From: Minisyncoccota bacterium
GTDB lineage: Bacteria > Patescibacteriota > Minisyncoccia > Phycocordibacterales > BOKC01
NCBI GenBank assembly: GCA_030583745.1
Contig: CP129473.1
Span: 362,887-426,886 of the forward strand
Reading direction: 5' to 3'
DNA length: 64,000 bases
Each line of letters starts with the position of its first letter. Position 1 is the stretch's first letter. A program made the translations under genes and the position numbers. Shown piece by piece: positions 2,533 to 64,000 of the stretch. Below the pieces are notes generated by a model, which was not told the origin of the DNA, did no database searches, and saw only the letters and a list, made by a program, of their open reading frames with translations.

Positions 2533-5500
2533 TTATAACTCTTCTTCTAAATCTAGCTCTGTTTCTGGTTCACCCTCAACAATCTCATTTTCCGGGCCCG
2601 CCCCAACACTAACTTTCTCTTCGTTTTCTTCACTACCGGTCTCTTCTTTTGATCCAATCTCATCCGCTTTGAAATCACCTTTGTTATCCGAGCCAACTTG
2701 ATCATCCGGATAATCAACACTACCACCACCACTTTTGAAAATTTGACATTCGCCCGGTGCTGAATTTACAACTCCACTGTTTATAGACAAACAATACGGC
2801 TCGCCGGTTATTGTATCGAATAAAGTTATACCTGCCGGATTTTCTCGGTTGCCGACCGTCAACTTTTCGGCAATCAAATTTTTGAAATAGGCAAATCCAT
2901 CCTGGATTTTAACACCAAGCATTTCAAAGTTGGTAAGAATATAATCAAAACCAAAACCGCCGGCATTTCCACCCTTTACAAAAGCTTCCAGATCAGAAAT
3001 TCTTTTTTCCAAATTCAAATCACCCTCACCAAAATAAAAGGTGTTGTTATTTATAAAAGTCATAATCTTACCGACTTCCCCATTAGAAGAAGGTGTGAAA
3101 TCTTCAAGCGCAACACCAACAACTCGGCCGGGTTTTGTGGCTTTCATCCCAATCCCAAGTCTTGATGACGAGGTGATGTAATCTCCGGCTTTTATCGGGC
3201 CGTTTTCGTCTGAAACCTTAACCGGCACCCGACCCATAACCCCAACCGGTATGTCATTTGTCTCTTCAATCCGGTAAGCTGTCGGGCTTTTGGATAGCGT
3301 ACCAATAATACCCGGTTTTGTTGAATAAACGCCCACTAAATTTGCCTGATAAACACCGTAAGATTTTTCAACCTTGCCGGGTTCCAGCTTTGAAGCCACA
3401 ACAATATCCCCCGGCTCGTATTCGGTCTTTAAACCAACAACAGTAAAAGCTTCGGCGTAGTCGGCCGGATTTGTAAGCGAGCCGTCAATTGCCACGTCGC
3501 CGTCGGAATCAACAGTAAATTTACGATTTATGACATCTCCGGTTGTCGTCGCAATTGTAAAAAGATAGGTATTGGCATTTGGCTGATTTGAGACAATTGT
3601 AAAATCTGCATCTGGAGTAGAAGTACCAACTCCAACTCGGACTACGTTGCCAGTTGCGCTTGTTTCAAAAACAATGTTACCAGCTGTTGCCGTACCAATA
3701 TGAGTAGTGCCGTTATCCAAAACTGAAAACAAAGTGGTTGAAGCATTATTAACCAACTCAAAAATTCTATTCGTGCCAGTACCGACCCCCCAGACCGTGA
3801 GCTTGCTGTAAGGTGTTGTCGTGCCAATTCCGACATTACCACCAAAATATGATTTGGTTGTACCACCAGTATAAATAGCAAAACGATTATTACCCCGAAC
3901 AATCTCGTCTATTCTTAATCCATAAACATTTGTCATAGTTCCAGATCCGGTAGTTGAAGGACTTCTAACTCTTATTCCAGAATAATCGGTAATTGCACCG
4001 GAACCACCCAAATACCAAATTGATTCTTCTATCTGCAGTCCAATATATTCAGTAATTGAAGCGTTATTGACTGTTAAACTACCTCTTTCACTCCAAACCG
4101 AAAGTCCTGTTGCCAAAGATATAGTTCCAAGTGCAGTAGAACCAAAATGTAATCCAACTCGTCCACCGGACAGACCACCAGGACCGGTTGTTAAAGTTAA
4201 GGCACCAGAACCGCTGTGCTTAGCAATTGACTGAAAAGCCATATTGGAACCAGAGTTTGAGCTAGAGCCAGTAAAATCTACTGCTGTTAGAAGGCCTCGC
4301 CTTTCTCCACTTGTGCCAGTTATTCCTTTAATTGTAACCAAGCGGTCAGTGTCGTTGGTGGGGCTGACGGGAAGATTTGTGGTGGCTCCGCCAAAATGAG
4401 AGTAGGTATTCATATTCCTTGAAACCTCAAGACCTCCCTCAGCTGTTAATTTGCCACTGACATAAGTCAGATCGGCAGATTCTGAAAGAATGCCGTCTGT
4501 GCTAACAAAAGGAACTCGATTGCTGGTAAAGGGGGTTCTAAAATTTCCGGTAAACCGAAGGTTTGTGAAAGTTGAAGTGGCATTACTAGAAGTGGCTGTA
4601 AAATATTCAGCAACCGCTTGTCCGACAACAGAAAGACGAGCGTAAGGGGAGGACGTGCCGATGCCAAAATTTATGCCATCAAAAACAAAACCGTCGGTAT
4701 CCGTCAAAGCATTACCCGAAGAATTGGTGTGAATAATCCTGTTTGCGGTAAAAGATGATTGTGTGTCTGTTAAACCAAGAAAAGTTGATACCCCACTTCC
4801 ACCACCAACACACACGCCATTTACCGCAAAACATCCGGTACGAATATCTATGCCGGAGCCAAAAGTTGAAGTCGCGGTAGTAGAAATATTTATCGTGTCA
4901 GGGCCAGTGTTGCCTAAAGAAAAAATTGTTCCCGGAGTAGTTGTGCCAATACCAATGTTCCCCAAGAAATATCCAGTTCCATCTTCAAGAAAAGCAGCCA
5001 AAGTAGTTGAAGAATTGTTGGTTAACTCAAAAAGCCGGCTTGCACCAGTGCCCGAACCCCAAACTGAAAATCTGGAGTAAGGAGACGAGGTGCCGACTCC
5101 AACATTACCATTAGAAAGTAGCGCCAAAACAGAAGCCGAGCTTTGCCCGATAAATTCAGCTATTTTACCGGCGCCACTTTGGGTAATTCTTAAAAATGTT
5201 GAAGCGGTGGAGGTTGAGTTTTCGGCATCGGAACGCAAAAATTGTGATGAGTTTAAGCCCGACAATTTGCCAGCTTCAAAAGCTGAGGGCACTGTGCCCA
5301 AAATTTTTCTCGGGGACATTTCATCATCGCAACCAGAAAGTCCAGACGTTCCACAAATCTCAACACCAAGGTAAAGAGTTTGGTTGAAGTTGACCGTTGA
5401 AAGCGGAGTGGAACTGCCAAGCATGACACTAAACAATCCATCGGTTACAGTTATCCGATCACCAGAATCTATACGGATTTCTTCCCAGATATTTGTAGTG

Positions 5501-5706
5501 GTAGCGCTAGTCGCAGTAGTATATAAACGAAATTTCATTATATAGTTACCATCAGGTACCGCCAGATTATTAGTGTCTGTCAATTTGCCTTGATAGTTTA
5601 TCTGCGAATTAAAATCAGCATAAGAGACAAAAGGCAGCAAGAAAAAAAATCCTGAAAAAACCAGAAAAGTATAAATCCGAATTTTTTTTCTAAGCAATAT
5701 TCTCAT
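2533..5706 (-). CDS. Large (1057 aa) secreted tail-fibre-like repeat protein with a Peptidase_G2 / intramolecular-chaperone-like C-terminal region and an acidic tail.
   Basis: Signal peptide. At least 5 repeats of the n(V/I)G(I/V)GT(S/T)(S/T)P....(L/F)(S/T)V.G motif. C-terminal ...PADYAEAFTVVGLKTEYEPGD...GVYSTKPGIIG resembles the ADYAEYFEW block of phi29-gp12-type G2 autoprocessing domains. Confidence 0.55.
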   Translation of the reverse strand: MRILLRKKIRIYTFLVFSGFFFLLPFVSYADFNSQINYQGKLTDTNNLAVPDGNYIMKFRLYTTATSATTTNIWEEIRIDSGDRITVTDGLFSVMLGSSTPLSTVNFNQTLYLGVEICGTSGLSGCDDEMSPRKILGTVPSAFEAGKLSGLNSSQFLRSDAENSTSTASTFLRITQSGAGKIAEFIGQSSASVLALLSNGNVGVGTSSPYSRFSVWGSGTGASRLFELTNNSSTTLAAFLEDGTGYFLGNIGIGTTTPGTIFSLGNTGPDTINISTTATSTFGSGIDIRTGCFAVNGVCVGGGSGVSTFLGLTDTQSSFTANRIIHTNSSGNALTDTDGFVFDGINFGIGTSSPYARLSVVGQAVAEYFTATSSNATSTFTNLRFTGNFRTPFTSNRVPFVSTDGILSESADLTYVSGKLTAEGGLEVSRNMNTYSHFGGATTNLPVSPTNDTDRLVTIKGITGTSGERRGLLTAVDFTGSSSNSGSNMAFQSIAKHSGSGALTLTTGPGGLSGGRVGLHFGSTALGTISLATGLSVWSERGSLTVNNASITEYIGLQIEESIWYLGGSGAITDYSGIRVRSPSTTGSGTMTNVYGLRIDEIVRGNNRFAIYTGGTTKSYFGGNVGIGTTTPYSKLTVWGVGTGTNRIFELVNNASTTLFSVLDNGTTHIGTATAGNIVFETSATGNVVRVGVGTSTPDADFTIVSNQPNANTYLFTIATTTGDVINRKFTVDSDGDVAIDGSLTNPADYAEAFTVVGLKTEYEPGDIVVASKLEPGKVEKSYGVYQANLVGVYSTKPGIIGTLSKSPTAYRIEETNDIPVGVMGRVPVKVSDENGPIKAGDYITSSSRLGIGMKATKPGRVVGVALEDFTPSSNGEVGKIMTFINNNTFYFGEGDLNLEKRISDLEAFVKGGNAGGFGFDYILTNFEMLGVKIQDGFAYFKNLIAEKLTVGNRENPAGITLFDTITGEPYCLSINSGVVNSAPGECQIFKSGGGSVDYPDDQVGSDNKGDFKADEIGSKEETGSEENEEKVSVGAGPENEIVEGEPETELDLEEEL

Positions 5707-54914: not shown

Positions 54915-56657
54915 TTATTGTCCAATATCTAAAATTTTTTCCAACTCTTCCCTCGGAATCTCTTTCGCGCTGTTTCTTTGTTTGTGTTCGACTCTGTCAG
55001 TCTGGGGAATTTTAATTTTATGCTGGCTGTCTTTTTTTTCTTGTTCAAAACCGACCGCGCCTTTTTCATTTAACCCCTCTGACATTGTTGGTTTTTTTTC
55101 CTCCGCCAAAATTCCGGCCAAAGCGGCTTTCAGCTCGTTTCTTGAGCTCATAGATGGCCCAGACTCTTTATCTTTTCTCTTACTTGAGTCAGCGATTTTT
55201 TTCAAAGAAACCTTAAAATCTCTGCGATCAGGAACGCTCTTTGGTGGTCGGCTATCGGGAATCTTATCCACCCTTTTTTCTTCCATATTAAAACTTGCAG
55301 GTTTTTGCCGAAAAGAGTTGTCATCTCGTCTTCTTACTGATTTGTCTAAATTTTCTTCTGGAGTAGACGGGGTGTGCCAATCTGCTATTTTCTGCTCAAC
55401 ACTTATTCTAGGTTCAGCAAATGTTTTTCTGGAAAACTCAATTATTTGATCTTTGTTGGAAACTGGTGGTTTCTTAATTGGTGGAAGAGTCGTAGCAGAG
55501 AATGGTTGAGAAGTAATACTATCTATCATCAACTTTAAATAAATTTGAACAAACCCCAAATTGACCAAATCTTCAATAGTGAAAGTTGGAGCAAATTCTT
55601 TCTCCAAAATCTCCGCATCAAAAGCGCCAATCCGAAAGACAATCATCGTACCGACGTTGCCAAAAACAGCCGCCCGCACCTCTTCTGGCATCTGCTCTAT
55701 GTATTGGTGGGCAATGGTCAAAGATAATTTATATTTTCTAGCTTCAGACAAAATATCAGCGAAAGATTCATTAGCAAAAGACTGGAATTCGTCAACAAAC
55801 AGATAAAATTGCGGCAAACTCTCCAAAACACTTTCATGAACATCAGCTCTAGACATGGCCGAAAGATATATCTTTGTAACAATCATTGAGCCGAGAAGTT
55901 GGGCATTTACCTCCCCCATCCGGCCCTTTGACAAATTGATAATCAAAATCTTCTTTTGGTCCATTATCTCGCGCAGATTAAATGAAGATTTTGGCTGGCC
56001 GATGATGTTTCTTATGAGAGGGTTTGAAGTAAATTGGCCAATTTTGTTTTGGATAGCCGGTGTGGCCTCTTGGGTGTAGCGATCGGTGTATTTGGCATAT
56101 TCATCTTCCCAAAAAGATTTGACAATCGGGTCAGTGATGTTGGCAACCACTTTCTTTCTGTATTCCTTATCGGCATACATCCTGTTGACCCCAAGCAGTG
56201 TGGCTCCTGGATATTCCAAAAGAGCAAAAAGTGTGTTTGAAAGGATATACTCCATACGGCCGGACCAAGCGTCAACCCAGATCTTTTTGAAGGCCGACAT
56301 CAATCCAGAAACAACTAGATGTCGTTTGTCATACCCAACATCTTCCATAATATTGAAAGAAATTGGGTAGTCCATATCAAAAGGCGCGAAATATACGACA
56401 TCCTCAATTCTCTCTTTCGGCACATATTCCAAGAGCAGCTCGGCGGTCTTGCCGTGCGGGTCAATAAAAGCCAAGCCCTCGCCGTTCTTTATATCTTGGA
56501 TAGCCAAATTCTCAAGAAGTGTGGACTTTCCCATTCCGGTCTTACCGATAATATAAATATGCCGAGCTCTATCTTTAGCTTTAATACCAAACGGCACTCT
56601 TCTGCCTCGCGCATCAGTTTCGGCAAAATAAGTTACTTTGTTGTCTTGATTACTCAT
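54915..56657 (-). CDS. AAA-like ATPase of the VirD4/TraD/TrwB (type-IV-secretion coupling protein / HerA-FtsK) superfamily with Lys/Glu-rich disordered C-terminal tail.
   Basis: Walker A IIGKTGMGKST. IDPHG block. Walker B LFVDEFQSF. Confidence 0.55.
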   Translation of the reverse strand: MSNQDNKVTYFAETDARGRRVPFGIKAKDRARHIYIIGKTGMGKSTLLENLAIQDIKNGEGLAFIDPHGKTAELLLEYVPKERIEDVVYFAPFDMDYPISFNIMEDVGYDKRHLVVSGLMSAFKKIWVDAWSGRMEYILSNTLFALLEYPGATLLGVNRMYADKEYRKKVVANITDPIVKSFWEDEYAKYTDRYTQEATPAIQNKIGQFTSNPLIRNIIGQPKSSFNLREIMDQKKILIINLSKGRMGEVNAQLLGSMIVTKIYLSAMSRADVHESVLESLPQFYLFVDEFQSFANESFADILSEARKYKLSLTIAHQYIEQMPEEVRAAVFGNVGTMIVFRIGAFDAEILEKEFAPTFTIEDLVNLGFVQIYLKLMIDSITSQPFSATTLPPIKKPPVSNKDQIIEFSRKTFAEPRISVEQKIADWHTPSTPEENLDKSVRRRDDNSFRQKPASFNMEEKRVDKIPDSRPPKSVPDRRDFKVSLKKIADSSKRKDKESGPSMSSRNELKAALAGILAEEKKPTMSEGLNEKGAVGFEQEKKDSQHKIKIPQTDRVEHKQRNSAKEIPREELEKILDIGQ

Positions 56658-60929: not shown

Positions 60930-60943
60930 CTAACTAATATAAG

Positions 60944-60962
60944 GACATCGCAAGTCCTTATT
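60944..60962. repeat. REP-like 19-nt hairpin aaggacatcgcaagtcctt (orientation A), just 3' of the transposase gene.
   Basis: Stem aaggac/gtcctt with 7-nt loop. Related copies at 61476, 61697, 61748. Confidence 0.7.
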
Positions 60963-61644
60963 ATTCTAAATCTAAAGCAACCTCTTGAAAATTTTCCACA
61001 CTTATATCTTTAAGCCAGTTTCGTATACCTTTTCTATAGCCATCAGTTCCGCCGAAAAAATCTAACATGAAATCACGTTGGGTAACAGATGGAAAATTTT
61101 TCTCTCCAAGATAGTCTAAATGACTCGACCAACGATAAGAACCTAGAAAATTTATTGCCTGCCTATAATCTTTCAACTTCCCCTCTCTCCACTCCGGCGC
61201 GGTTAAATCAAGAGGGTTTAAATGAATGTAATAAGGTAAGTGAATGAAATGCGCGTCGTTTTCTACTAAAACTCTTTTATATCTTGATTCAAATAAAGCC
61301 CCCTTTCTCTCATATTTTTCATTGAAATATTTAGCATATCCCATATTTACTTTCTTCATAAATTTGGAAATACCGTAATCTATTTTGGATGAAATCAATA
61401 AATGATAATGGTTGGGCATCAAACAGAAAGCGTTAAGATTTACCAACAGTTTTCGCTTCTGCCGAGTTTTTTCAATATAAGGACTTGCGATGTCCTTAAT
61501 TTTGGAGAAACGATAAAGAGAGTTGTTAACCCAATTCTGATCGTTAAACTCAAATAAATCGTGAATAAAACGGAGATAATCCTTGTTATCAAGAAAAATA
61601 TTTCTCTTGTCTACCCCTCTATTTAGTACGTGGTAAAACTCCAT
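60961..61644 (-). CDS. IS200/IS605-type HuH Y1 transposase / REP-associated tyrosine transposase (RAYT)-like.
   Basis: HuH motif PNHYHLL. C-terminal Tyr region RYKRVLVENDAHFIHLPYYIHLNPL. Confidence 0.7.
   Translation of the reverse strand: MEFYHVLNRGVDKRNIFLDNKDYLRFIHDLFEFNDQNWVNNSLYRFSKIKDIASPYIEKTRQKRKLLVNLNAFCLMPNHYHLLISSKIDYGISKFMKKVNMGYAKYFNEKYERKGALFESRYKRVLVENDAHFIHLPYYIHLNPLDLTAPEWREGKLKDYRQAINFLGSYRWSSHLDYLGEKNFPSVTQRDFMLDFFGGTDGYRKGIRNWLKDISVENFQEVALDLE
61476..61494. repeat. REP-like hairpin aaggacttgcgatgtcctt (orientation B), located inside the transposase CDS (encodes KDIASPY).
   Basis: Exact reverse complement of the 60944 copy. Confidence 0.7.
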
Positions 61645-61696
61645 ATTCTATTGCTCAATTCACAATTTACCTATTATACCATAATTAATAATATTA

Positions 61697-61715
61697 AGGA
61701 CTTGCGATGTCCTTA
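61697..61715. repeat. REP-like hairpin aaggacttgcgatgtcctt (orientation B), 5' of the transposase gene.
   Basis: Exact copy; a variant hairpin cggacgtctgatgtccg follows at ~61748..61764. Confidence 0.7.
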
Positions 61716-61786
61716 TATTTATATTTAGAGAAAGGTCTAATTTTCGGACGTCTGATGTCCGATGTTTATTAAATTTTCGAAAAAGT

Positions 61787-61856
61787 CGGGCTGCCGAGAA
61801 TCGAACCCGGACTTCACGCACCCGAAGCGTGTGGACTACCACTATCCTACAGCCCG
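61787..61856 (-). tRNA. tRNA-Pro (anticodon CGG).
   Basis: Manual cloverleaf. C1:G72 acceptor cgggctg/cagcccg. Anticodon stem cacgc/gcgtg with loop ttCGGgt. T-arm GGTTCGATTC. CCA not encoded. Confidence 0.75.
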
Positions 61857-61886
61857 AACTAAATAAAAACTTACTTTTTTACCGAA

Positions 61887-61970
61887 TGGGCAAGGGGGGA
61901 GTTGAACCCCCACTGGATTGCTCCAACACGGCCCTGAACCGTGCGCGTCTGCCAATTCCGCCACTTGCCC
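61887..61970 (-). tRNA. tRNA-Leu (anticodon CAG), long variable arm.
   Basis: Acceptor gggcaag/cttgccc. Anticodon stem cacgg/ccgtg, loop ttCAGgg. Long variable arm. T-arm GGTTCAACTCC. Confidence 0.7.
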
Positions 61971-62053
61971 ACACACTTACTTTGCCATTAAAGAATTTTT
62001 TGCAACGAAAAAGACTGGTAAAGCTGATGTGGAACATGCCCAATCAAAACCAA

Positions 62054-62110
62054 TGCGCGTGCCAGGGATCGAACCTGGGACCTTTCGAGTATCAGTCGAA
62101 TGCTCTACCT
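62054..62110 (-). pseudogene. Partial copy (~55 nt, 3' portion: T-arm, anticodon arm, part of D-arm) of tRNA-Ile(GAU).
   Basis: Identical to the 3' part of the 62155..62227 tRNA, diverging at the D-stem. Confidence 0.55.
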
Positions 62111-62154
62111 TCACCCGCCCATCAATTTTTAAATACTTTATTTACCGTCCAAAG

Positions 62155-62227
62155 TGCGCGTGCCAGGGATCGAACCTGGGACCTTTCGAGTATCAGTCGA
62201 ATGCTCTACCAACTGAGCTACACGCGC
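62155..62227 (-). tRNA. tRNA-Ile (anticodon GAU).
   Basis: gcgcgtg-ta-gctc-agttggta-gagc-a-ttcga-ctGATac-tcgaa-aggtc-ccagg-ttcgatc-cctgg-cacgcgc-a; perfect cloverleaf. Confidence 0.8.
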
Positions 62228-62284
62228 ACTCTAGAAATTAAAAATATATTTATTGATGTCAAAATTGATAGGCGGGCAAGCCTG

Positions 62285-62393
62285 AGCTACACGCGCGCAA
62301 TATTTGCTTTTCAAGATTCTAACACCCTGCGTACGTTTAATCTCTGGGCCTACCAAGACAGCTACACGCGCGCAATATTTGCTTTTCAAGATT
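62285..62393. repeat. Two 34-bp direct repeats (agctacacgcgcgcaatatttgcttttcaagatt) 75 bp apart; their first 12 nt equal the 5' end of tRNA-Ile (reverse complement gcgcgtgtagct).
   Basis: Seen in sequence at ~62285..62318 and ~62360..62393. Confidence 0.6.
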
Positions 62394-62469
62394 TCTACCA
62401 CGCGAGACAAACCTAAACCCAAAATACCCATAAAAATTAACAAAAAAAACTCTCAAAAACAAGAGAGCC

Positions 62470-62497
62470 CCGCGCGCAAGCGCGCGGGGCTCATATA
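62470..62497 (-). terminator. Strong GC hairpin (gagccccgcgcgc-aa-gcgcgcggggctc) followed on the minus strand by a T-run; terminator of 62503..62742.
   Basis: Perfect 13-bp palindrome. Confidence 0.6.
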
Positions 62498-62502
62498 TGA
62501 AT

Positions 62503-62742
62503 TCACTTCCCCCATTCAGGTCCAACCCAGACCCGATGGTACCGACGCCTTCCCTCAATTGCCTCCAACGGCACTTTCTTGCCGTTGATCTCCACCTGCA
62601 CGATCTTGCCGGTGGGGACGGAAACATAGACGACGGGCTTTCGGGCGTCATCAACGATGATCACCACAGTCAAAGCCCCGAAGAAAATATAGAAGACAGT
62701 GAGAAGAAGAACGTTTCGAATTAGACGCTTGATTTTTCCCAC
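62503..62742 (-). CDS. Small (79 aa) GC-rich membrane protein, GTG start with aaaggag SD.
   Basis: N-terminal TM LLLTVFYIFFGALTVVIIV. Own SD and terminator. Other overlapping ORFs in this GC-rich stretch rejected. Confidence 0.4.
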   Translation of the reverse strand: MGKIKRLIRNVLLLTVFYIFFGALTVVIIVDDARKPVVYVSVPTGKIVQVEINGKKVPLEAIEGRRRYHRVWVGPEWGK

Positions 62743-62831
62743 GAAGAGCTCCTTTCTTCTTTATTCCTGCCGTCATTGGCTGGGAATCTTCTAATAGGAT
62801 ACAACAATTAACAAAATAAGTCAAATGAAAA

Positions 62832-62857
62832 CGCCCCCGTCTAGACGGAGGCGTGAG
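62832..62857 (-). terminator. Hairpin acgcccccgtc-tag-acggaggcgt downstream of 62872..63108.
   Basis: Seen in sequence. Confidence 0.4.
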
Positions 62858-62871
62858 CGAGACACAACAGG

Positions 62872-63108
62872 TCAAGCCCAGTACCGAGGGCTGCACTCTG
62901 TGCAGACCTGTTCTCCGGTGTAAGGATCCACCTGGAGAAGCGTTTTGTGGGTCGAACAGTAGAGGGCGAGGTGGGGCCACTCCTCCTTTTCCTCGCTTTC
63001 CACATCAACACCACCGAGGTGACTTTCAGTCAAAGCCACCTGACCAGCTTCGGTCTTGATGAGATTCCTCATTTCTCTCACCTTATCCCACCTGATTGTG
63101 GCCATCAT
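62872..63108 (-). CDS. Small (79 aa) GC-rich Cys-containing (CxxH...CxxC) hypothetical protein with perfect aaggagg SD 5 nt upstream of ATGATG.
   Basis: Start trimmed from ORF-track 63150 to MMATIRWDKV. SD and terminator present. Confidence 0.45.
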   Translation of the reverse strand: MMATIRWDKVREMRNLIKTEAGQVALTESHLGGVDVESEEKEEWPHLALYCSTHKTLLQVDPYTGEQVCTECSPRYWA

Positions 63109-63195
63109 GACCTCCTTCTTTGTTGCGAAGAGTCCTTTCACACATAGCACTTACAACAAGCGCTAATCCTTTTTCATACTAACACATTTAAAAAC

Positions 63196-63231
63196 AAAAA
63201 GCAATCCAAGTCTGGACTGCTTTTTGTTTAT
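63196..63231. terminator. A/T-flanked hairpin (aaaaagcaatccaagtctggactgcttttt) between the small GC-rich gene and the 16S 3' end; probable rRNA operon terminator.
   Basis: Seen in sequence. Confidence 0.4.
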
Positions 63232-63399
63232 TATCCTTTGTTTTGTTCCGTTCTAGCCCGATCATTTTACAAAGTAAAATAATTTAGGGTCTTTGTTGTG
63301 TATCTTTCTACACCTGTCATCCAATTTAGGTTTTGAAAACCATTGTACACTCGATCGAGATGTACAATATCGACTGTAGCCCCCACCGAAGTGAGGGTT

Positions 63400-63547
63400 G
63401 TTCAATTTGAAATATTCCACGAGCAGCTTCCGCTACCCGTGCCTTGTTACGACTTACTCCCTGTTATTGAGCTTACCGTGATGCCACAAAAGTGACGCTT
63501 CGGGTATTCCCAACTCCCTTGAGTTGACGGGCGGTATTTGATGTGTT
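63400..63547 (-). rRNA. Partial 16S rRNA, 3'-terminal ~150 nt (E. coli ~1390-1540 region), continuing upstream beyond an intervening sequence.
   Basis: Reverse complement reads ACCGCCCGTCAACTCAAGGGAGTTGGG...GGGAGTAAGTCGTAACAAGGCACGGGTAGCGGAAGCTGCTCGTGGAAUAUUUCAAAUU. Universal 1400-region and GUAACAAGG signatures; h45 with GGAA loop. Boundaries approximate. Confidence 0.6.
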
Positions 63548-64000
63548 ATAATGTCACCATTATAATTCTCTTCAACACGGGGCAAGCGGTTTTCCCGCAC
63601 CCTCGCGTTTTCCAAAGGTTGCTTATCCGATTTTTTTATCGAATTCACTTACCTTGCCATGATAAGTTTTAGCTTTCTTCCCTAATGAGCGCAAATCATT
63701 GCGTAGGGAAACAATTTTGTTAAATCCATCATCAGATAAATGTTCTTTGGCGCAAACCATAAGAACTATTTTTCTAAAAATAAGATAGGATTTTTTCTTT
63801 TTCGCCTGTAATGGATACTTATCAAGAAACGGGAATAAATACTCTTTCAGGTCCCAGATGCTGGTAATTTTATACTTGGCATGCGGATACCATCCATATC
63901 GCTCATAAGAGCAATCATAAATTCTCCCGATTCCGATAGTCACAAGTATGCGTTCCAGGATTTCTTGATCATCTTTCCGCAATTCTATTTCAAATTCCGG
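63548..64000 (-). mobile_element. Intervening sequence (probable group I intron) inserted near the 16S 1390s/1400 region, carrying a homing-endonuclease ORF; extends beyond window end.
   Basis: Sequence between the recognisable 16S exon and window end is non-rRNA-like and encodes a LAGLIDADG-fold protein in the rRNA orientation. Confidence 0.5.
63623..64000 (-). CDS. LAGLIDADG-family homing endonuclease (I-CreI-like, C-terminal part; N-terminus with the LAGLIDADG motif lies outside the window).
   Basis: ...IGRIYDCSYERYGWYPHAKYKITSIWDLKEYLFPFLDKYPLQAKKKKSYLIFRKIVLMV... aligns in pattern with the I-CreI segment VGYVRDRGSVSDYILSEIKPLHNFLTQLQPFLKLKQKQANLVLKII. Frame open to position 64000. Confidence 0.55.
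   Translation of the reverse strand, partial: PEFEIELRKDDQEILERILVTIGIGRIYDCSYERYGWYPHAKYKITSIWDLKEYLFPFLDKYPLQAKKKKSYLIFRKIVLMVCAKEHLSDDGFNKIVSLRNDLRSLGKKAKTYHGKVSEFDKKIG

Follow-up and report, generated by a model that had tools for sequence, protein, structure and literature searches.

Results

A tRNA-Ile gene split around an intact copy of itself

Why does an intact tRNA-Ile(GAU) gene lie among fragments of the same tRNA, and what put the fragments there? The question is raised by a locus in a 64-kb stretch of contig CP129473.1 (hereafter the window, to whose positions all coordinates refer), from a bacterium of the Patescibacteria, Parcubacteria/Paceibacteria group. The answer that we favor, and consider reasonably likely, is that the resident tRNA-Ile gene received, in its D-loop, a hairpin-bounded cassette that lacks a promoter and contains a complete tRNA-Ile, which gave the locus a break-and-replace anatomy.

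The original prediction for this region listed a tRNA cluster (Pro-CGG, Leu-CAG, and Ile-GAU), a copy of about 55 nt of the tRNA-Ile 3' portion some 45 nt away from the intact gene, and two 34-bp repeats spaced by 75 bp, which carry 12 nt of the tRNA 5' end and, as an alternative, could be duplicated promoter or leader units. ARAGORN and Rfam confirmed the three genes, all on the minus strand, with tRNA-Ile(GAU) called at 62154-62227. The 3' copy proved to be exact over 56 nt and lies downstream of the intact gene, and the repeat finder gave a gap of 45 nt. The 34-nt repeats are also exact, at 62285-62318 and 62360-62393 with the 75-nt spacing, and each consists of a leader with promoter-like sequence followed by the tRNA 5' end. 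For simplicity, the tRNA-Ile pieces were named A, B, C, and D, and the arms that flank the intact gene C were named X and Y (Table 1). The tRNA-derived portion is 12 nt within the exact repeat, 15 nt in B, and 22 nt, with three mismatches, in A. Chance does not come close to explaining these repeats.

The geometry of these pieces goes beyond the earlier description, in that B and D are the parts of one split tRNA-Ile and an inverted repeat flanks C. On the sense strand, the sequence reads leader, B (tRNA positions 1-15), X, C, Y, and D (positions 18-73). Together, B and D make up one tRNA-Ile that lacks only T16 and T17 of the D-loop, and the insert lies exactly between them, with two nucleotides lost at the target instead of duplicated. 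Neither insert junction rebuilds a whole tRNA, since B stops at position 15 and D begins at position 18, and only a GG dinucleotide is common to both junctions. The insert is X-C-Y, with inverted-repeat ends and C at its center. It contains no protein gene, and 73 of its 172 nt are tRNA. Within the window, the inner and outer copies are identical over B (15/15 nt) and D (56/56 nt). In Rfam, D and the end of arm Y score 41 bits as a tRNA without the 5' D-arm, and the scan of the locus returned only tRNAs and the end of the 16S rRNA gene, with no other RNA family. We take C to be the working gene.

Table 1. Coordinates of tRNA genes, tRNA-Ile pieces, insert arms, and associated features in the window.
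Feature	Position	Strand	Evidence
tRNA-Pro(CGG), intact	61785..61856	-	ARAGORN; Rfam tRNA 59.5 bits
tRNA-Leu(CAG), intact	61886..61971	-	ARAGORN; Rfam tRNA 50.6 bits
D, 3' half of outer tRNA-Ile, positions 18-73	62054..62109	-	Repeat family D1; 56/56 nt identical to C
Y, 3' arm of insert, 45 nt, complementary to X	62110..62154	-	Inverted repeats I1, I2, I6; duplex and fold analyses
C, intact tRNA-Ile(GAU), whole gene	62155..62227	-	Rfam tRNA 76.2 bits; ARAGORN
X, 5' arm of insert, 54 nt	62228..62281	-	Repeat, fold, and duplex analyses
X+C+Y insert, 172 nt	62110-62281	-	Sum of parts
B, 5' end of outer tRNA-Ile, positions 1-15 (GCGCGTGTAGCTCAG)	62282..62296	-	Repeat families D3, D4
Leader of B, with extended -10-like motif TGTTAGAAT at 62316-62324	62297..62324	-	Motif starts 28 nt upstream of B
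129-nt strain-variable stretch	62302..62430	.	Alignment with L091/L092
A, second tRNA-Ile 5' remnant, positions 1-22, 3 mismatches	62350..62371	-	Repeat family D3; inside the 129-nt polymorphism
Leader of A, with -10-like sequence TGGTAGAAAT at 62391-62400	62372..62400	-	Sequence reading; partly in 34-nt exact repeat D4
Strong terminator hairpin at the end of the G+C-rich islet, upstream of the tRNA-Ile remnants	62465..62492	-	12-bp stem with 11 G-C pairs, T-run

The arms of the insert are complementary

An inverted repeat of 16-21 nt (62114-62134 and 62256-62276) lies on both sides of C, with CCCGCCCATCAATTTT at 62114 and its complement at 62261. Two matches were found in the window, as compared to 0.1 expected by chance. 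The paired arms, of 16-19 bp, sit at the extreme ends of the insert and are terminal inverted repeats. The same is seen at four (L154, L078, L015, and L065) of the 160 MurD-anchored loci that we fetched from genomes and metagenomes.

A minimum-free-energy fold of the 291-nt sense transcript predicts a cloverleaf within a cloverleaf. B is predicted to pair with D, which gives the outer acceptor and D stems, X and Y form a helix of ∼38 bp, and the inner tRNA is located at the tip of this helix. The fold z-score is -7.7 for the 171 nt from 62110 to 62280 (the insert less one base) and -5.5 for the flanks alone. For the duplex of X and Y, the calculated energies are -38.4 (sense strand) and -22.2 kcal/mol (antisense strand), and 6 of the 38 pairs are G.U. 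Because the duplex is so much more stable on the sense strand, and contains six G.U pairs, the model points to constraint on the X:Y helix at the level of RNA and not of double-stranded DNA. The sense-strand bias suggests an RNA-processing step, in organisms whose tRNA maturation has been little studied.

The promoter motif stands at the outer gene

In loci with a plain tRNA-Ile gene, an extended -10-like motif, TGNTANNNT (typically TTTTTGGTACTAT), is found 17-57 nt upstream of the tRNA. It is present in 53 of 65 such loci, as compared to 6.5% of random 70-nt windows. In the window, B has TGTTAGAAT 28 nt upstream, at the customary distance, and A has the near-match TGGTAGAAAT, while the 70 nt upstream of C contain no TGNTANNNT motif. 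The nested loci of relatives show the same distribution: the motif stands ahead of the outer 5' relic in all ten (10/10), and their inner tRNAs lack a motif of their own, the lone match at -70 in L015 being that of the outer relic. Transcripts arriving from the 16S gene and the islet should be halted by the terminator (62465-62492) that lies upstream of the tRNA-Ile remnants. Since the motif is at B and not at C, and a terminator lies upstream, C is most likely expressed from the promoter of the old gene through B and X.

The nested core is fixed in the species

B-X-C-Y-D is found at 100% identity in L091 and L092, two independent, conspecific metagenome contigs (MurD 98% identical). Both lack positions 62302-62430 of the window, a stretch of 129 nt that comprises A, its -10-like sequence, and most of the leader of B. 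The original prediction had proposed that relatives be compared for indels, and this stretch is one. The form with A is also present in L010 (SRR24881069), which is 100% identical to the window from 63453 to 62364. In six samples, the short-read contigs end 30 nt into repeat D, as a true repeat predicts. The contigs of one strain (L001/L008) end 45 nt into D, and D of this strain carries a T-to-C change in the T-loop that C does not have; the 15-nt shift is the one expected from this base difference between D and C. In three assemblies, D is still 100% identical to C. Based on the conspecific contigs and the differences between strains, the species has a fixed nested core, a polymorphic A, and a D that can drift.

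Nested tRNA genes recur in Patescibacteria

Many of the Patescibacteria loci share the order tRNA-Ile(GAU), in some with tRNA-Leu(CAG) and tRNA-Pro(CGG), followed by murD, and a 16S gene is located 1-1.7 kb upstream in L065, L092, and L154. At the syntenic site, the majority have a plain tRNA-Ile. About ten loci have the nesting or its upstream half (L015, L023, L024, L030, L052, L065, L070, L078, L108, and L154), and further tRNA-Ile relics are present in L089 and L160. A tRNA-Leu(CAG) is nested likewise in L012 and L108, and short copies of tRNA 3' ends lie beside tRNA-Leu and tRNA-Pro in related loci, which rules out specificity to tRNA-Ile. The inserts that could be delimited are ∼130-320 nt long. 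Judged by these sequences, the nesting recurs in Patescibacteria and appears to be a variant of tRNA-targeted insertion.

Leader-trailer hairpins set the nested loci apart. Among 73 tRNA-Ile loci, five have a hairpin with a z-score below -3 and four of these five are nested, while most plain loci are near zero; at other tRNAs only 1 of 57 reaches z = -3. In relatives, the outer halves are decayed: in L078 and L154 a hairpin has taken the place of the anticodon stem, L015 and L065 lack parts, and L023 has a disrupted T-arm. Because of this decay, the outer halves are better read as relics than as exons.

Inner and split outer tRNAs are not the same in three or four nested loci (L015, L023, L024, and L108, the last with a nested tRNA-Leu). 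The outer acceptor strands of L015 are GCGTGCG/CGCACGC and the inner ones GCACGCT/AGCGTGC; in L023 they are GGGCGTG/CACGCCC and GCGGGCG/CGCCCGC, respectively. At both loci, the two outer halves have matching acceptor strands, belong together, and are distinct from the inner gene. In L024, the outer 5' relic is preceded by the promoter and leader found at the plain gene of its closest relatives (MurD 71-76% identical) and the outer 3' relic matches their tRNA at 44/45 nt, while the inner tRNA has exactly the sequence found in the more distant lineage L028 (MurD 67% identical). These matches indicate that the outer gene of L024 is native and the inner gene foreign.

Several variations were observed among the relics. 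In the outer relics L030 3654-3721, L154 2245-2300, and L078 361-398, a strong terminator-like hairpin replaces the 3' strand of the D-stem and the 5' strand of the anticodon stem, and the anticodon loop is CTAATAA or CTAACAC, a G34-to-A change. This hairpin may terminate transcription after the inner tRNA. A second tRNA-Ile copy without the 5' acceptor strand lies downstream of the intact one in L024 (1068-1216), L089 (2044-2203), and L160 (1970-2176). It has a D-loop insert of ∼80 nt, which in L089 and L160 begins with GCCCnTCGGGCTTTCT, a tetraloop hairpin; the insert of L024 resembles that of L089 further in. Lastly, a conserved element consisting of GG(G/T)GTACTGA followed by a hairpin (stem of 3-5 bp, loop TGTAA) is found in L011 (2040-2115), L065 (7180-7255), L100 (∼2170-2245), and L154 (2340-2420), where it directly adjoins a duplicated segment of tRNA-Pro or tRNA-Ile that runs from the T-loop to the 3' end. 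Its stem covaries over the four lineages (AAC/GTT, CCC/GGG, ACA/TGT, and AGC/GCT), and no Rfam match covers it in L011, L065, or L154 at E up to 0.1. Possible identities are an intron remnant or the terminus of a miniature element that targets the T-loop.

Discussion

A proposed cassette that breaks and replaces a tRNA gene

According to the reading that we favor, a 172-bp insert would have broken the resident tRNA-Ile(GAU) gene in its D-loop, and we infer that this was one discrete event. The promoter, leader, and first 15 nt of the old gene would survive as B and its last 56 nt as D. The inner C would now be the working gene, probably transcribed from the old promoter through B, and the 5' half would have been retained since it supplies that promoter. 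The X:Y helix probably acts in RNA, where it could shield the inner cloverleaf from the identical relics, offer a double-strand-specific processing site, or both. Piece A, in some strains only, would be a further remnant of promoter, leader, and 5' end, left by an earlier round or by a local duplication. The insert may have entered as a tiny hairpin element that was mobilized in trans, perhaps in the form of single-stranded DNA and by a Y1/HUH enzyme; as the last remnant of a split-and-complement phage or island, as in mycobacteriophages (PMC10865867); or by template switching at the tRNA's own inverted repeats. Since the inner and outer sequences are the same in the window, the donor may be conspecific or the same genome.

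Several observations weigh against this account. The arms X and Y have no second copy in the window, the 160 loci, or viral contigs, and there is no sign of a multi-copy mobile family behind them. The insertion points vary: they are mostly at D-loop positions 15-22, around the conserved GG, but lie in the anticodon loop in L023 and L065. A consistent target-site duplication is not seen either, with TAG at both junctions in L154 and none in L078. No empty-site allele of this species was found, and the best MurD identity in the one-genome-per-species GTDB set is only 59%, which leaves no sister-species empty site for comparison. Because the inner and outer copies are identical, a foreign origin cannot be demonstrated in the window, and a local rearrangement is possible there. 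For A, a second, outer hairpin was considered and dropped, as the stretches that follow A and D show no significant complementarity (z = 0.1). The sequence after A has no further copy in the window or the 160 loci. Finally, the use of the promoter at B and the role of the helix in RNA are predictions from sequence and folds.

Beyond the single locus, one may ask whether there is a class of tiny non-autonomous tRNA replacement cassettes, each a promoter-less tRNA with hairpin-forming inverted repeats that enters the D-loop, or sometimes the anticodon loop, of the cognate gene in Patescibacteria and is kept because it replaces the essential gene that it destroyed. Such cassettes might move as single-stranded hairpins via a Y1/HUH enzyme, e.g., one 500 bp away, and could carry tRNA genes between lineages. 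We put this forward tentatively and regard it as doubtful. The insert does resemble the miniature inverted-repeat and hairpin elements moved by Y1 enzymes (IS200/IS605, REP-associated), as it is small and non-coding, has inverted-repeat ends, folds into one long hairpin, and has a Y1 gene 500 bp away. It differs from them in that its arms are single-copy in the window and the 160 loci, the hairpin of the Y1 gene itself is unrelated, target-site duplications are not regular, arm sequences are unrelated between genomes, and the cargo is a functional-type tRNA of the same kind as the target.

tRNA genes are where mobile DNA classically lands, and the large elements known to use them either restore the tRNA or, as a few phages do, supply a substitute. 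Here, the entire insert is the substitute: ∼130-320 bp, lacking both an enzyme and a promoter motif, within the gene that it replaces. If it is a mobile unit, it would be near the smallest conceivable addictive element, and would provide a route for the horizontal replacement of core translation genes in minimal-genome bacteria. Within the limited collection of literature that we searched, no description of nested tRNA cassettes in bacteria was found. Nested loci also have a practical side, as they break short-read assemblies and produce false additional tRNA calls (the relic D exceeds the Rfam threshold), by which the tRNA counts of metagenome-assembled genomes can be misled.

Integration scars as a possible alternative

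Partial tRNA copies next to tRNA genes are the usual mark of tyrosine-integrase elements, and such copies exist here and, as short 3' ends, at tRNA-Leu and tRNA-Pro in related loci. The pieces could accordingly be scars of integrase islands or phages that entered tRNA-Ile and were later excised or deleted, with D as attR and A and B left by 5'-targeting elements. The locus shares with classic tRNA att sites a partial direct copy beside an intact tRNA and variation between strains. At classic sites, the 3' part alone is normally duplicated, and kilobases of foreign DNA with an integrase separate the copies. Here, in contrast, both 5' and 3' remnants are present, the gap between C and D is 45 nt or, counted as the insert, 172 nt are bracketed, and there is no integrase within ∼7 kb.

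Another parallel is tRNA-dependent lysogeny in actinobacteriophages, where the integrating phage cuts an essential host tRNA gene in two and does not restore it (Guerrero-Bustamante & Hatfull 2024, PMC10865867). As in that system, the host tRNA is split and rebuilt at neither junction, with an intact tRNA-Ile(GAU), C, at the center of the insert. In both, an essential tRNA gene is destroyed and a substitute supplied, after which the incoming tRNA cannot be lost. Phages that split the host tRNA and bring a cognate one are documented, and the essential tRNA would stay between the halves once the dispensable phage genes were gone. However, in tRNA-dependent lysogeny an entire prophage is inserted, with a tyrosine integrase and ∼10 bp of common core (PMC10865867), whereas the insert here is 172 bp with no protein gene, promoter motif, or clear core, has inverted-repeat ends, and has no phage counterpart that we could find.

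The evidence from the neighborhood and the relatives makes this explanation improbable. Pfam searches of the ORFs around the locus and upstream of the L092 16S gene found no tyrosine or serine integrase within ∼7 kb on either side. None of the 160 loci has a kb-sized element between the fragments, which lie at most a few hundred nt from the intact gene, so that no less-decayed version is known among them. An exact search of viral contigs with the 56-nt tRNA segment and arm X gave no matches, and a phage origin was rejected on these grounds. Integration scars would not lead one to expect insert ends that pair along the entire flank, 38 bp in this case; the two junctions share no clear common core, and 5' fragments and nesting do not fit this explanation. 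The original prediction had read the duplications as scars of site-specific integration or excision at a likely recombination hotspot and had suggested a search for an integrase further along the contig. A recombination scar and a hotspot do hold, but the classic integrase island does not, given the absence of an integrase, the 45-nt gap, the 5' fragments, and the nesting.

A possible local rearrangement

Alternatively, no mobile DNA may have been involved. Replication slippage or template switching at the inverted repeats of the tRNA could have duplicated portions of the gene, with quasi-palindrome correction then lengthening the acceptor stem on into its flanking sequence. The inner and outer copies are the same in the window and in L078, as this would have it. 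The arms differ in every genome and in several (L012, L108, L015, and L024) run straight on from the acceptor stem, as expected if they were made from local sequence, and the end of Y (GCGGGTG) is similar to the 5' acceptor strand. What tells against it is that the inner tRNA differs from the outer in L015, L023, L024, and L108, with an exact match to another lineage in L024, and that X and Y are unrelated to the native leader and trailer of close relatives. We therefore give a purely local origin a small chance. A tandem duplication, which predicts direct repeats between the spacers, was rejected because X and Y are inverted repeats.

A hypothetical working split tRNA and other systems

A further possibility is that the outer gene still works: the X:Y helix would join B and D, and after release of the inner tRNA the halves would be ligated or would serve as a two-piece tRNA. 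In the predicted fold, the outer acceptor and D stems re-form around the insert, and D is 100% identical to C in three assemblies. Nonetheless, a joined B-D product would miss two D-loop nucleotides, the outer halves have decayed in relatives (L015, L023, L065, L078, and L154), and D carries a substitution in another strain of the species. Inspection of the predicted fold by eye showed no bulge-helix-bulge motif at the junction, no dedicated motif search having been run. To our knowledge, bacteria do not possess the archaeal splicing endonuclease. Together, these points make a working split tRNA very improbable.

The anatomy nevertheless recalls that of archaeal genes. Complementary sequences after the 5' half and before the 3' half are a hallmark of archaeal split tRNAs (PMC4033280, PMC3218864), and tRNA halves bordered in this way are described for the split and intron-containing tRNAs of Nanoarchaeum and Caldivirga and in the fragment model for Caldiarchaeum tRNA-Thr (PMC3293823, PMC4033280). 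The present locus shares the complementary borders, a 5' tRNA fragment upstream of the working gene after a mobile-element event, and disruption at the D-loop or anticodon loop. It differs in that the host is a bacterium, the intervening sequence is a complete second tRNA, and no bulge-helix-bulge is apparent by eye.

Group I introns have been described in tRNA genes of Patescibacteria, where they reside in the anticodon loop (PMC13011429). [quoted passage not shown] The eukaryotic Dada DNA transposons, which use a DDE transposase, generate duplications of 6-7 bp, and target multicopy small-RNA and tRNA genes (PMC3706591), are similar in that they insert sequence-specifically at a conserved site inside tRNA genes. 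They differ in relying on multicopy targets (PMC3706591), whereas the insert described here carries the replacement gene with it.

The chance that the locus is an assembly artefact, with conserved tRNA repeats mis-joined in metagenome assembly, is negligible: short-read contigs do break at these repeats, but k-mer contigs break exactly where true repeats would put them, with the expected 15-nt shift in one strain, and two independent assemblies agree on B-X-C-Y-D, the unique arms X and Y included, which excludes it.

Neighboring genes and additional features

On the minus strand, the order of genes is 16S rRNA, a G+C-rich islet of ∼1 kb, the tRNA-Ile remnants with the intact gene, tRNA-Leu, tRNA-Pro, a Y1 (IS200-like) transposase, murD, and murC. 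The region of ∼7 kb includes, among others, an epimerase, SecD, SecF, 16S rRNA, two small ORFs without a Pfam match, the Y1 transposase, MurD, and MurC. In the conspecific L092, the genes upstream of the 16S gene are the epimerase, secD, and secF.

The Y1 transposase gene (60961-61644, minus strand) is ∼500 bp from the insert. Inverted copies of the hairpin AAGGACTTGCGATGTCCTT flank it at 60941-60959 and 61696-61714, and a third copy lies inside the ORF at 61479-61497. The transposase unit (60941-61714) is only 91% identical between strains, as compared to 96-99% for its flanks. The original prediction had counted this gene, as a RAYT-like transposase, as part of the recombination hotspot. The neighbor is indeed a Y1 transposase, but a link to the nested locus was discarded, since the three copies of AAGGACTTGCGATGTCCTT are unrelated to X and Y, and homologues of the gene are not found beside nested loci elsewhere.

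The islet (62431-63400, between the 16S gene and tRNA-Ile) has a G+C content of ∼48%, with ∼37% around it, and ends in the strong terminator. It encodes two small minus-strand ORFs of 79 and 92 aa with no Pfam match, one of which weakly matches a PHROG of unknown function. At 96% identity, the islet is also present in L091 and L092.

The 3' end of the 16S gene (63405-64000, minus strand) is interrupted near model position 1400 by DNA for a LAGLIDADG endonuclease (ORF 63623-63982, PF00961). Homology to L092 ends at position 63535, and because the L092 16S gene (4054-5698) is uninterrupted, the intervening sequence varies within the species. The 3' tail of the 16S gene (63405-63430, minus strand) reads GGAAUAUUUCAAAU where the consensus in the Rfam alignment is GGAUCACCUCCUUU. 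A CCUCC anti-Shine-Dalgarno sequence is not found at the expected place in this tail, which could be a real loss or a misplaced 3' end.

Lastly, a minus-strand protein of 580 aa is encoded at 54915-56657, ∼5 kb from the tRNA cluster. It matches Pfam TrwB_AAD_bind and, weakly, DUF87 and T4SS-DNA_transf, with TraG-D_C fainter still. These are coupling-protein families of type IV secretion, and the protein is a possible DNA-transfer component.

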